Source: Escherichia phage Lambda imm434. From it: 47,326 bases of DNA. The notes under the pieces were generated by a model that saw only the letters and a list, made by a program, of their open reading frames with translations, did not search any database and had not been told where the DNA came from. The DNA is taken from sequence record OM418626.1. One strand, 5' to 3'. Below, one piece after another: positions 22,558 through 27,723 of the stretch (position 1 is the stretch's first letter; every line of letters begins with the position of its first letter). Position numbers and translations under genes: made by a program.

Positions 22558-22572
22558 TCGTTTTGTGATATG

Positions 22573-22606
22573 CCGCAGAAACGTTGTATGAAATAACGTT
22601 CTGCGG
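22573..22606. terminator. Hairpin between convergent late operon and b-region genes (candidate bidirectional terminator)
   Basis: Inverted repeat ccgcagaaacgtt ... aacgttctgcgg between tfa (+) and ea47 (-). Confidence 0.5.
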
Positions 22607-22685
22607 TTAGTTAGTATATTGTAAAGCTGAGTATTGGTTTATTTGGCGATTATTATCTTCAGGAGAATAATGGAAGTTCTATGAC

Positions 22686-23918
22686 TCAATTGTTCATAGT
22701 GTTTACATCACCGCCAATTGCTTTTAAGACTGAACGCATGAAATATGGTTTTTCGTCATGTTTTGAGTCTGCTGTTGATATTTCTAAAGTCGGTTTTTTT
22801 TCTTCGTTTTCTCTAACTATTTTCCATGAAATACATTTTTGATTATTATTTGAATCAATTCCAATTACCTGAAGTCTTTCATCTATAATTGGCATTGTAT
22901 GTATTGGTTTATTGGAGTAGATGCTTGCTTTTCTGAGCCATAGCTCTGATATCCAAATGAAGCCATAGGCATTTGTTATTTTGGCTCTGTCAGCTGCATA
23001 ACGCCAAAAAATATATTTATCTGCTTGATCTTCAAATGTTGTATTGATTAAATCAATTGGATGGAATTGTTTATCATAAAAAATTAATGTTTGAATGTGA
23101 TAACCGTCCTTTAAAAAAGTCGTTTCTGCAAGCTTGGCTGTATAGTCAACTAACTCTTCTGTCGAAGTGATATTTTTAGGCTTATCTACCAGTTTTAGAC
23201 GCTCTTTAATATCTTCAGGAATTATTTTATTGTCATATTGTATCATGCTAAATGACAATTTGCTTATGGAGTAATCTTTTAATTTTAAATAAGTTATTCT
23301 CCTGGCTTCATCAAATAAAGAGTCGAATGATGTTGGCGAAATCACATCGTCACCCATTGGATTGTTTATTTGTATGCCAAGAGAGTTACAGCAGTTATAC
23401 ATTCTGCCATAGATTATAGCTAAGGCATGTAATAATTCGTAATCTTTTAGCGTATTAGCGACCCATCGTCTTTCTGATTTAATAATAGATGATTCAGTTA
23501 AATATGAAGGTAATTTCTTTTGTGCAAGTCTGACTAACTTTTTTATACCAATGTTTAACATACTTTCATTTGTAATAAACTCAATGTCATTTTCTTCAAT
23601 GTAAGATGAAATAAGAGTAGCCTTTGCCTCGCTATACATTTCTAAATCGCCTTGTTTTTCTATCGTATTGCGAGAATTTTTAGCCCAAGCCATTAATGGA
23701 TCATTTTTCCATTTTTCAATAACATTATTGTTATACCAAATGTCATATCCTATAATCTGGTTTTTGTTTTTTTGAATAATAAATGTTACTGTTCTTGCGG
23801 TTTGGAGGAATTGATTCAAATTCAAGCGAAATAATTCAGGGTCAAAATATGTATCAATGCAGCATTTGAGCAAGTGCGATAAATCTTTAAGTCTTCTTTC
23901 CCATGGTTTTTTAGTCAT
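22686..23918 (-). CDS. ea47: Ea47, b2-region protein of unknown function
   Basis: ORF 22686..23945 with start taken at MTKKPWERRL (23918); strongly AT-rich coding sequence. Confidence 0.8.
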   Translation of the reverse strand: MTKKPWERRLKDLSHLLKCCIDTYFDPELFRLNLNQFLQTARTVTFIIQKNKNQIIGYDIWYNNNVIEKWKNDPLMAWAKNSRNTIEKQGDLEMYSEAKATLISSYIEENDIEFITNESMLNIGIKKLVRLAQKKLPSYLTESSIIKSERRWVANTLKDYELLHALAIIYGRMYNCCNSLGIQINNPMGDDVISPTSFDSLFDEARRITYLKLKDYSISKLSFSMIQYDNKIIPEDIKERLKLVDKPKNITSTEELVDYTAKLAETTFLKDGYHIQTLIFYDKQFHPIDLINTTFEDQADKYIFWRYAADRAKITNAYGFIWISELWLRKASIYSNKPIHTMPIIDERLQVIGIDSNNNQKCISWKIVRENEEKKPTLEISTADSKHDEKPYFMRSVLKAIGGDVNTMNN

Positions 23919-24508
23919 AAAACTCTCCATTTTGATAGGTTGCATGCTAGATGCTGATATATTTTAGAGGTGATAAAATTAACTGCTTAACTGTCAATGT
24001 AATACAAGTTGTTTGATCTTTGCAATGATTCTTATCAGAAACCATATAGTAAATTAGTTACACAGGAAATTTTTAATATTATTATTATCATTCATTATGT
24101 ATTAAAATTAGAGTTGTGGCTTGGCTCTGCTAACACGTTGCTCATAGGAGATATGGTAGAGCCGCAGACACGTCGTATGCAGGAACGTGCTGCGGCTGGC
24201 TGGTGAACTTCCGATAGTGCGGGTGTTGAATGATTTCCAGTTGCTACCGATTTTACATATTTTTTGCATGAGAGAATTTGTACCACCTCCCACCGACCAT
24301 CTATGACTGTACGCCACTGTCCCTAGGACTGCTATGTGCCGGAGCGGACATTACAAACGTCCTTCTCGGTGCATGCCACTGTTGCCAATGACCTGCCTAG
24401 GAATTGGTTAGCAAGTTACTACCGGATTTTGTAAAAACAGCCCTCCTCATATAAAAAGTATTCGTTCACTTCCGATAAGCGTCGTAATTTTCTATCTTTC
24501 ATCATATT

Positions 24509-25399: not shown

Positions 25400-26973
25400 T
25401 GTACTTTACCTTCATCTCTGTTCATTATCATCGCTTTTAAAACGGTTCGACCTTCTAATCCTATCTGACCATTATAATTTTTTAGAATGGTTTCATAAGA
25501 AAGCTCTGAATCAACGGACTGCGATAATAAGTGGTGGTATCCAGAATTTGTCACTTCAAGTAAAAACACCTCACGAGTTAAAACACCTAAGTTCTCACCG
25601 AATGTCTCAATATCCGGACGGATAATATTTATTGCTTCTCTTGACCGTAGGACTTTCCACACGCAGGATTTTGGAACCTCTTGCAGTACTACTGGGGAAT
25701 GAGTTGCAATTATTGCTACACCATTGCGTGCATCGAGTAAGTCGCTTAATGTTCGTAAAAAAGCAGAGAGCAAAGGTGGATGCAGATGAACCTCTGGTTC
25801 ATCGAATAAAACTAATGACTTTTCGCCAACGACATCTACTAATCTTGTGATAGTAAATAAAACAATTGCATGTCCAGAGCTCATTCGAAGCAGATATTTC
25901 TGGATATTGTCATAAAACAATTTAGTGAATTTATCATCGTCCACTTGAATCTGTGGTTCATTACGTCTTAACTCTTCATATTTAGAAATGAGGCTGATGA
26001 GTTCCATATTTGAAAAGTTTTCATCACTACTTAGTTTTTTGATAGCTTCAAGCCAGAGTTGTCTTTTTCTATCTACTCTCATACAACCAATAAATGCTGA
26101 AATGAATTCTAAGCGGAGATCGCCTAGTGATTTTAAACTATTGCTGGCAGCATTCTTGAGTCCAATATAAAAGTATTGTGTACCTTTTGCTGGGTCAGGT
26201 TGTTCTTTAGGAGGAGTAAAAGGATCAAATGCACTAAACGAAACTGAAACAAGCGATCGAAAATATCCCTTTGGGATTCTTGACTCGATAAGTCTATTAT
26301 TTTCAGAGAAAAAATATTCATTGTTTTCTGGGTTGGTGATTGCACCAATCATTCCATTCAAAATTGTTGTTTTACCACACCCATTCCGCCCGATAAAAGC
26401 ATGAATGTTCGTGCTGGGCATAGAATTAACCGTCACCTCAAAAGGTATAGTTAAATCACTGAATCCGGGAGCACTTTTTCTATTAAATGAAAAGTGGAAA
26501 TCTGACAATTCTGGCAAACCATTTAACACACGTGCGAACTGTCCATGAATTTCTGAAAGAGTTACCCCTCTAAGTAATGAGGTGTTAAGGACGCTTTCAT
26601 TTTCAATGTCGGCTAATCGATTTGGCCATACTACTAAATCCTGAATAGCTTTAAGAAGGTTATGTTTAAAACCATCGCTTAATTTGCTGAGATTAACATA
26701 GTAGTCAATGCTTTCACCTAAGGAAAAAAACATTTCAGGGAGTTGACTGAATTTTTTATCTATTAATGAATAAGTGCTTACTTCTTCTTTTTGACCTACA
26801 AAACCAATTTTAACATTTCCGATATCGCATTTTTCACCATGCTCATCAAAGACAGTAAGATAAAACATTGTAACAAAGGAATAGTCATTCCAACCATCTG
26901 CTCGTAGGAATGCCTTATTTTTTTCTACTGCAGGAATATACCCGCCTCTTTCAATAACACTAAACTCCAACAT
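25396..26973 (-). CDS. ea59: Ea59, ABC/OLD-type ATPase with about 190-aa N-terminal extension
   Basis: ORF 25396..26973 (525 aa); Walker A FIGRNGCGKTT, signature-like MSSGH, Walker B LVLFDEPEVHLHP, H-loop IATHSP. Confidence 0.85.
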   Translation of the reverse strand: MLEFSVIERGGYIPAVEKNKAFLRADGWNDYSFVTMFYLTVFDEHGEKCDIGNVKIGFVGQKEEVSTYSLIDKKFSQLPEMFFSLGESIDYYVNLSKLSDGFKHNLLKAIQDLVVWPNRLADIENESVLNTSLLRGVTLSEIHGQFARVLNGLPELSDFHFSFNRKSAPGFSDLTIPFEVTVNSMPSTNIHAFIGRNGCGKTTILNGMIGAITNPENNEYFFSENNRLIESRIPKGYFRSLVSVSFSAFDPFTPPKEQPDPAKGTQYFYIGLKNAASNSLKSLGDLRLEFISAFIGCMRVDRKRQLWLEAIKKLSSDENFSNMELISLISKYEELRRNEPQIQVDDDKFTKLFYDNIQKYLLRMSSGHAIVLFTITRLVDVVGEKSLVLFDEPEVHLHPPLLSAFLRTLSDLLDARNGVAIIATHSPVVLQEVPKSCVWKVLRSREAINIIRPDIETFGENLGVLTREVFLLEVTNSGYHHLLSQSVDSELSYETILKNYNGQIGLEGRTVLKAMIMNRDEGKVQ

Positions 26974-27543
26974 ATAGTAACCCTTAATTTTATTAAAATA
27001 ACCGCAATTTATTTGGCGGCAACACAGGATCTCTCTTTTAAGTTACTCTCTATTACATACGTTTTCCATCTAAAAATTAGTAGTATTGAACTTAACGGGG
27101 CATCGTATTGTAGTTTTCCATATTTAGCTTTCTGCTTCCTTTTGGATAACCCACTGTTATTCATGTTGCATGGTGCACTGTTTATACCAACGATATAGTC
27201 TATTAATGCATATATAGTATCGCCGAACGATTAGCTCTTCAGGCTTCTGAAGAAGCGTTTCAAGTACTAATAAGCCGATAGATAGCCACGGACTTCGTAG
27301 CCATTTTTCATAAGTGTTAACTTCCGCTCCTCGCTCATAACAGACATTCACTACAGTTATGGCGGAAAGGTATGCATGCTGGGTGTGGGGAAGTCGTGAA
27401 AGAAAAGAAGTCAGCTGCGTCGTTTGACATCACTGCTATCTTCTTACTGGTTATGCAGGTCGTAGTGGGTGGCACACAAAGCTTTGCACTGGATTGCGAG
27501 GCTTTGTGCTTCTCTGGAGTGCGACAGGTTTGATGACAAAAAA

Positions 27544-27577
27544 TTAGCGCAAGAAGACAAAAATCACCTTGCGCTAA
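27544..27577 (-). terminator. sib: sib / tI hairpin (RNase III retroregulation site and int terminator)
   Basis: Inverted repeat ttagcgcaag ... cttgcgctaa downstream of int on the leftward transcript; position consistent with lambda sib. Confidence 0.6.
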
Positions 27578-27723
27578 TGCTCTGTTACAGGTCACTAATA
27601 CCATCTAAGTAGTTGATTCATAGTGACTGCATATGTTGTGTTTTACAGTATTATGTAGTCTGTTTTTTATGCAAAATCTAATTTAATATATTGATATTTA
27701 TATCATTTTACGTTTCTCGTTCA

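Follow-up and report, generated by a model that had tools for sequence, protein, structure and literature searches.

Introduction

Septu systems, including the PtuAB modules of retrons Ec78 (Eco7) and Ec83 (Eco4), appear to be the nearest described counterparts of two genes, ea59 and ea31, that lie in the b2 region of phage lambda. In PtuAB, oligomers of PtuA scaffold PtuB, and ATP binding inhibits the nuclease; activation leads, depending on the homologue, to plasmid nicking, single-stranded DNA cleavage, or tRNA-Tyr cleavage, with outcomes that resemble abortive infection (PMC12640716, PMC13096335). We analyzed a 47,326-nucleotide stretch of DNA from Escherichia phage Lambda imm434 (sequence record OM418626.1), the whole of which is called the window below, and in particular its positions 22558-27720. 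This segment, which spans the stop codon of tfa (orf-194) to just before the attP core and holds ea47, ea31, and ea59, is lambda's classical b2 (or b) region. Its genes are non-essential by CRISPR interference (CRISPRi; PMC10695390), and the region is routinely replaced with payloads (PMC12171280, PMC9674246).

We judge it likely that b2 serves as a cargo slot where the late operon ends, beside sib and attP, and that it is occupied by two unrelated, independently mobile, AT-rich cassettes, one the Septu-like ea59-ea31 pair and the other ea47. An original prediction, made from the letters of the window alone, had described the segment as an AT-rich accessory island between the tail fiber genes and attP; because b2 is a textbook non-essential region, that observation is a correct re-description and not a discovery. 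RefSeq likewise already labels ea59 as "AAA family ATPase" and ea31 as "HNH endonuclease". The two cassettes and their genes are listed below.

22686..23918, minus strand: ea47, 410 aa (Pfam PF26900, Phage_lambda_Ea47)
24257..27528, minus strand: ea31-ea59 block, an insertion relative to HK97 (blastn joints)
24509..25399, minus strand: ea31, 296 aa, predicted HNH (His-Me finger) nuclease, PtuB-like (PADLOC, PHROG, and invariant residues)
25396..26973, minus strand: ea59, 525 aa, predicted ABC-type ATPase (AAA_15/AAA_21), PtuA-like (Pfam, PADLOC, and structure profiles)

The stop codon of ea59 and the start codon of ea31 overlap by 4 bp, and we take the two genes to be translationally coupled.

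Base composition and codon usage

The GC content of 22558-27720 is 0.360, as against 0.566 in the left arm (1-22557) and 0.463 to the right of attP. When intervals of 5163 bp were slid over the whole genome (mean 0.502, standard deviation 0.067), the minimum of 0.359 was found at 22611; at its own length, the segment is essentially the genome-wide GC minimum. The fall starts no more than ~100 bp past the tfa stop codon, and there are other, smaller low-GC patches at ~33.5-35 kb and ~45.5-47 kb. The GC content at third codon positions (GC3) is 0.27 in ea47, 0.35 in ea31, and 0.28 in ea59, whereas it is 0.55-0.69 in the head and tail-shaft genes and 0.46-0.57 in lom, stf, and tfa. Codon preferences for leucine and arginine are inverted: the ea genes use TTA for 42% of leucines (3% in the comparison genes), CTG for 5% (69%), and AGA for 52% of arginines (4%). 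Runs of six or more A/T number 22 in the segment (4.3 per kb) versus 1.0 per kb elsewhere, and shuffling the segment's own composition yielded only 8.1 +/- 2.8 such runs.

The original prediction had been made by eye, and quantitative analysis agrees with it on each of these counts. The drop in GC relative to the morphogenesis genes is real, the codon usage of the ea genes is strongly shifted, and the long A/T runs are fourfold denser than elsewhere and exceed the shuffled expectation. The outcome that the prediction had named as contradicting it, namely GC content and codon usage like those of the rest of the genome, is not what was obtained. All three genes lie on the minus strand, opposite to the late operon, as had been stated.

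Variation at the site

Alignment with related phages reveals precise joints. Positions 4912-5006 of the HK97 locus (95 bp) match lambda 24162-24256 at 90.5% by blastn, and HK97 5001-5472, which match lambda 27529-28000, directly abut them. It follows that 24257-27528, the ea31-ea59 block, was inserted relative to HK97. Beyond the 95-bp match, which bears a hairpin, the HK97 interval between tfa and sib holds nothing else. An Escherichia coli prophage adjoining prfC shares lambda 22001-24256, and thus ea47 only; phage IdasGreatGrand shares 24190-27510, and thus ea31-ea59 only, and its tail-fiber and integrase genes differ. In phage 434 (L025, 2589-5789), the slot between tfa and attP is filled instead by a remnant of IS1414 and by pieces of three type III secretion effector genes, nleB, nleC, and nleH. 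Other loci share 24335-27106 (L012), 24377-27255 (L013), or 24434-26990 (L015) with lambda, and the minimal ea31-ea59 unit common to distant hosts is ~24434-26990. At least 80% of the region is present in 66 of 5426 complete E. coli genomes, in which the sib/attP end was found in ~2960. Lambdoid phages thus do not share one composition and gene content at this site: HK97 is empty, 434 has Nle remnants, and others have a single cassette. Presence and absence vary at one site among related phages, and the composition of what is found there is deviant, as is expected of an accessory island.

"Enterobacteria phage O276" (L024) is a lambda derivative with the laboratory deletions b519 and b515, in which ea47 and ea59 are truncated and ea31 is gone.

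Pairing and neighborhoods of ea59-ea31

Many matches of 100% identity in public genomes represent lambda contamination; these were left out of the co-occurrence count. In all 25 non-lambda loci with upstream sequence, the Ea31 homologue is preceded, at a distance of 0-12 nt, by the end of a full-length Ea59 homologue. An Ea47 homologue occurs within ~8 kb in 0/25 non-lambda ea59-ea31 loci, and neither Ea59 nor Ea31 is present at any of six loci with Ea47 only. The genes ea59 and ea31 are an obligate pair. A conserved third gene 5' of ea59 was considered and rejected: the open reading frames (ORFs) found upstream in the Klebsiella, E. coli, and Vibrio loci have no relationship with one another or with lambda.

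The places in which the pair is found are diverse. In Klebsiella, it lies in a CP4-57-like island with AlpA, YfjJ, antirestriction, RadC, and CbeA genes, where it adjoins another AAA_15 pair and a ScoMcrA-type HNH gene; in E. coli and Yersinia, it lies in integrative elements beside CTD/MC/SMC conflict genes; and in Vibrio parahaemolyticus, it occupies a small integrase/DUF3987 island and adjoins a DUF87 pair. The Shewanella and Aeromonas copies are clean insertions among housekeeping genes. Other phages carry the pair in other slots: it may follow gpJ, with a Dam methylase and a second AAA_15 gene as neighbors, or it may follow O/P-like replication genes.

The GC content of ea59-ea31 is 32-38% in 18 of 19 loci, the flanks of which range from 30 to 62%; the exception is Dyella, at 46%. 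Because the low GC content is kept across hosts, it is a property of the ea59-ea31 cassette, and this is the strongest argument for horizontally acquired cargo, a claim of the original prediction that the variable presence at the site and the separate spread of the two cassettes support as well.

Family assignment of Ea59 and Ea31

Ea59 matches the Pfam families AAA_21 (E = 1.3e-16) and AAA_15 (E = 8e-13) and, in PADLOC, the models PDC-M01A (E = 8e-202) and, full length, PtuA PDLC00282 (E = 8.8e-185). Ea31 matches PDC-M01B over its full length (E = 5.8e-113), and its PADLOC matches include, among those listed, both the PDC-M01B and PDC-M62B models; distant Ea59-Ea31 homologues likewise match the PDC-M01 models. 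Ea31 also belongs to PHROG 10378, which is annotated as an HNH endonuclease, and a classification of His-Me finger nucleases lists an "ATP-dependent nuclease EA31" (PMC5714182). In a genome survey, PDC-M01 calls duplicated Septu calls (PMC11811056).

The residues expected of such proteins are conserved. In a 20-sequence alignment, the invariant positions of Ea59 include the Walker A motif (GxxGxGKT; G195, K201, and T202), the signature S365-S366-G367, the Walker B pair D391-E392, and the H-loop H425. In 33 Ea31 relatives, C108xxC111, D121-H122, N138, and C143xxC146-N147 are invariant, residues that read as the DH...N...N form of a predicted HNH motif. When the family profiles were compared with solved structures, PtuA proteins took the eight top places for Ea59 (E = 6.6e-7 to 2.6e-5), and the best matches for Ea31 were the PtuB chain 22bv_F (E = 0.024) and Ec78 PtuB (E = 0.034). 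An AlphaFold2 model of Ea31 (predicted local distance difference test score, pLDDT, 85) had a single plausible Foldseek match, the retron I-A HNH protein 9n69_F, with a probability of 0.82 and template-modeling (TM) scores of 0.36/0.44. Ea59 scored 49.7 bits against the retron-specific PtuA equivalog of NCBIfam, the cutoff of which is 500. Judged from sequence, Ea59-Ea31 is a divergent, Septu-like pair that falls in the PADLOC candidate class PDC-M01 and is not a bona fide member of Septu. The original expectation that candidate defense genes would be found in the region is supported in the same terms, by homology to PDC-M01A/B, PtuA, and PtuB and by gene context.

ea47

Ea47 is the protein after which its Pfam family, PF26900, was named, and 1299 cluster representatives (50% identity) match it at E <= 1e-3. 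Because most homologues are 410 aa long and align with ~100% coverage, the start of ea47 at 23918 is supported. Homologues are solitary in integrase-linked islands; one stands beside AbiTii, FRG, DUF5677, and UvrD + Barstar genes, and another beside a RloB + AAA_15 pair. A DUF5677 gene adjoins the Ea47 homologue in Pectobacterium (L003, 9439-10272), and in another protein (P0385), DUF5677 is fused N-terminally to the Ea47 domain. Five larger proteins of 850-920 aa (P0300, P0340, P0367, P0374, and P0378) consist of an Ea47 domain followed by a C-terminal SEC-C zinc motif and TPR/TPR-S sensor repeats. From this context and from the fusions to sensor repeats, Ea47 is probably the effector of another conflict system.

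The family has an invariant motif, R83-N84-x2-E87-K88, and the AlphaFold2 model of Ea47 has a pLDDT of 88.5. Searches of NCBIfam, PADLOC, and a copy of Pfam lacking PF26900 yielded no match; the Ea47 profile matched no solved structure at E <= 10, and a structure search of BFVD returned uncharacterized phage proteins only. The N-terminal helical bundle of Ea47 was also considered as a HEPN domain, and this was rejected: the Rx4-6H motif is absent, and generic bundles of helices score at least as well.

Intergenic features and boundaries

The remaining features of the slot are given in base-pair order.

22558..22685, no strand assigned: convergent spacer from the tfa stop to the ea47 stop, with a strong hairpin at 22571-22607
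23537..23551, plus strand: attP-core-like 15-mer ACTTTTTTATACCAA within ea47, 13/15 identical to the core
24160..24256, no strand assigned: second copy of the post-tfa hairpin (24160-24197) plus ~60 bp, the joint between both cassettes
26974..27106, minus strand: conserved 5' region of ea59 (alignment with the Klebsiella and Kosakonia island copies)
27068-27063 and 27045-27040, minus strand: candidate weak sigma-70 promoter of ea59, -35 TGGAAA and -10 TAACTT (conserved blocks and their spacing)
27536..27585, minus strand: tI terminator/sib hairpin (inverted repeat; fold energy -45.3 kcal/mol, z = -3.5)
27583..27738, plus strand: attP P-arm Int sites and core, the core at 27724-27738 (NC_001416 annotation; exact core match)

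The hairpin at 22571-22607 has a fold energy of -36.7 kcal/mol (z = -2.95) and is possibly a bidirectional terminator or RNA end. It and the hairpin at 24160-24197 are homologous (~74% identical) and bracket the ea47 cassette, and only one such hairpin occurs between tfa and sib in HK97; the two look like a scar or target of ea47 insertion, or like a shared terminator. The 15-mer ACTTTTTTATACCAA is the sole other match to the attP core in the window at two or fewer mismatches, with 0.03 expected by chance. It is possibly a secondary site for Int, such as those thought to give rise to deletions in the b region.

The long intergenic stretches of the original prediction, 23919-24508 and 26974-27811, do exist, but the second is not empty, as it holds the 5' region of ea59, tI/sib, and the P-arm Int sites of attP. 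The tI/sib hairpin, which is annotated as sib in HK97 and HK022, belongs to the regulation of int and is no part of the cargo; the attP P arm and core are the right boundary of the island. Three small ORFs (27335-27604, 27157-27351, and 24108-24317) had no match in Pfam, NCBIfam, PADLOC, or PHROGs and were for that reason treated as non-coding. No Rfam family matched inside the island. The sole Rfam match was IS009 (RF02111), full length at 22316-22514 (plus strand) within tfa, with 224 bits versus a gathering score of 117; it is probably a consequence of the family having been seeded from prophage tfa sequence.

Expression, mechanism, and alternative explanations

The 5' region of ea59 is conserved over ~130 nt with Klebsiella and Kosakonia. 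Two blocks within it, ATGGxAAA and TAAxxTA, are invariant and separated by 17 nt. From this conserved pair we infer a candidate sigma-70 promoter, though a weak one: it agrees with the consensus at 8 of 12 positions, too few for the consensus scan to report it. Terminator consensus sites were not enriched in the region (two found, 3.2 expected), and both lie within ea59. In the leftward operon, the ea genes follow int, tI/sib, and attP, so that read-through from pL can reach them only while the DNA is unintegrated. This order, together with established lambda biology, suggests that N-antiterminated pL transcripts would pass tI/sib and attP into ea59-ea31-ea47 on the unintegrated genome only; in the prophage, the cassettes lie at the far end, beside attR and severed from pL, and would depend on their own weak promoters.

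By analogy with PtuAB, an Ea59 oligomer would bind Ea31 and, as long as ATP is bound, keep the nuclease inactive. The Ea31 nuclease might then be freed by a cue that stems from an infecting or a competing phage. Once freed, it could cut DNA or tRNA and stop replication of the competitor, possibly at the expense of the cell.

Several points weigh against a Septu-like pair and a second conflict gene as the content of b2. Ea31 had no match in NCBIfam, including TIGR02646, at E <= 0.01, and it scored 14.8 bits against the Pfam HNH family, below the cutoff of 21.4. The N-terminal ~180 aa of Ea59 match no Pfam family and lie outside the alignments to PtuA, and beyond the cores of the ATPase and the HNH protein, the likeness to validated PtuA and PtuB is weak (E = 1e-4 to 1e-7 for Ea59 and 0.02-0.2 for Ea31). 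No recognizable catalytic motif was found in Ea47. The consensus scan for promoters gave 16 sites versus 20.8 expected, and so neither enrichment nor a strong promoter belonging to the region. In the classical picture, the ea products of b2 are early lytic proteins, which fits a lysogen-resident defense less neatly. A full-text literature search revealed no paper that joins Ea59 with Septu or PtuA, and the searchable literature has no anti-phage activity on record for the lambda b2 genes. The Septu-like reading of the pair may have gone unremarked so far, yet the assignment is one that a direct database match suggests.

The best-surviving alternative, which we nevertheless consider unlikely, is that Ea59-Ea31 serve lambda's own lytic program as an ATP-dependent nuclease that is made early from pL and whose substrates are nucleic acids of the host, of a competitor, or of replication intermediates. 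The gene order downstream of int/sib, by which pL can reach the pair only in unintegrated DNA, speaks for such a role, and the lack of a strong promoter of its own in the consensus scan agrees with it, as do the listing of an "ATP-dependent nuclease EA31" (PMC5714182) and the citation of a lambda "single-stranded-DNA-dependent endonuclease" (PMC5241400). The pair would then equate with this lambda-specified endonuclease (Benchimol, Lucko and Becker 1982), but the gene behind that enzyme could not be confirmed. Neither CRISPRi knock-down nor deletion, however, causes a growth defect, and the cassette has ~130 nt of conserved 5' sequence of its own. The same cassette is also found outside phages, in integrative conjugative elements, in CP4-57-like islands, and flanked by housekeeping genes, settings in which a role in phage lytic growth makes no sense.

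It is considerably less probable that the pair is mainly selfish, i.e., homing-endonuclease-like or an addiction module, in which the HNH protein aids its own spread or retention and any benefit to the carrier is incidental. Phage HNH nucleases are often homing enzymes according to PHROG annotations, PtuAB is toxic if expressed alone (PMC12640716), and the insertions in Shewanella and Aeromonas, like the one in lambda relative to HK97, are clean or precise. The insertion sites are, on the other hand, mutually unrelated, so there is no conserved target gene; neither flanking repeats nor a cognate target was seen; and the nuclease is coupled in 25/25 loci to a 525-aa ATPase, unlike free-standing homing genes. 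We give very little credence to the idea that the low GC has a local cause, functional or mutational, such as a need for AT-rich DNA in bending by IHF and Int around attP, and is not a mark of foreign origin: the P arm of attP is indeed the most AT-rich 200 bp (28.5% GC at ~27600), functional, and conserved in other lambdoid phages, but the low GC extends over 5 kb of coding DNA, with the third codon positions most affected, HK97 and 434 retain attP/sib without the ea genes, and the cassettes are equally AT-rich in unrelated genomes, so that GC3, the HK97 joints, and cassette GC across genomes rule this explanation out for the coding part.

The reading of b2 as a slot for two mobile cassettes can be extended, although only tentatively and at somewhat less than even chances in our estimation. 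Lambda, the best-studied temperate phage, would then carry two conflict modules that exclude competitors during infection or lysogeny: a working Septu-type pair wired to the integration state (possibly the 1982 endonuclease, the mapping of which is unconfirmed) and Ea47, founder of an uncatalogued family of single-gene effectors that in other proteins is joined to SEC-C/TPR sensors. Whatever their activity, the DNA discarded in b2 deletions, replacement vectors, DE3, and CRISPR-armed lambdas includes a Septu-like pair and a widespread island-associated gene. If the modules are active, competition between phages would run differently in lambda lysogens and in delta-b2 derivatives of lambda; the triggering of a Septu-type module could be studied in lambda as a simple genetic system; and Ea47, with its many relatives, would be an accessible entry to a new effector family.

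Identity of the window

The window is not wild-type lambda. By blastn against NC_001416, window positions 1-35586 correspond to lambda 1-35587 at 99.95% identity and positions 37071-47326 to lambda 38247-48502 at no less than 99.95%, whereas the ~1.5 kb at 35587-37070 is 99.8% identical to the immunity region of phage 434. With lambda arms and 434 immunity between them, the window is therefore the lambda imm434 hybrid. Because the immunity region was swapped for that of 434, rexA, rexB, and lambda cI are absent. Coordinates in 22558-27720 are identical to those of J02459/NC_001416, with one single-nucleotide polymorphism, at 25662 inside ea59.

Lambda b2 DNA was also found at 100% identity on short or low-coverage contigs assigned to Streptomyces, Chromatium, Pseudomonas, Oceanobacillus, Fusobacterium, Bradyrhizobium, and others (contaminated loci L028-L040, L042, L043, L051, L052, L055, L058, and L063). 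"Campylobacter phage CJLB-4", which is 100% identical to the b2 segment with full coverage, is likewise lambda contamination.

Comparison with known systems

Among cargo slots, b2 resembles those of lambdoid morons (lom and bor), the Nle remnants of 434, and the P2/P4 hot-spots in being dispensable, deviant in composition, polymorphic, and placed at a module boundary beside an attachment site. It differs in that its genes, which lie downstream of pL, are read against the direction of the late operon; lom and bor are known lysogenic-conversion genes. Ea47, with its invariant R83-N84-x2-E87-K88 and without Rx4-6H, differs from HEPN toxins.

A free-standing HNH homing endonuclease beside its cognate target was rejected as a description of ea31, which is always paired with the ATPase gene and has unrelated insertion contexts. 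The OLD-family, Gabija, and PARIS systems share the ATPase clade of Ea59 (weak AriA, OLD, and DUF2813 matches) and the principle of an ATPase that gates a nuclease; the predicted nuclease of Ea59-Ea31 is instead an HNH protein on a separate polypeptide, and Pfam and PADLOC searches found no Toprim or DUF4435 domain in either protein. With PDC-M01, the likeness is of adjacent genes whose products match the A and B models full length, although membership says nothing on activity, because PDC-M01 is a bioinformatic candidate.

The comparison with Septu, including the retron PtuAB modules, is the closest. In Septu, a PtuA oligomer holds PtuB by way of the C-terminal helices of PtuA, and protection against phages depends on the activities of both the ATPase and the HNH protein. 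The pair departs from it in that sequence similarity is confined to the catalytic cores, in the length of Ea31 (296 aa versus ~215 aa for solved PtuB chains) and its failure against TIGR02646, in the extra N-terminal domain of ~180 aa in Ea59, and in its place in a phage genome, downstream of pL. It agrees with Septu in having an ABC-type ATPase gene (~525-550 aa) followed by an adjacent, co-directional HNH nuclease gene, in the conservation of Walker A, Walker B, signature, and H-loop together with the HNH catalytic residues, and in the full-length match of Ea59 to the PADLOC PtuA model, the nearest solved structures for the two proteins being PtuA and PtuB.

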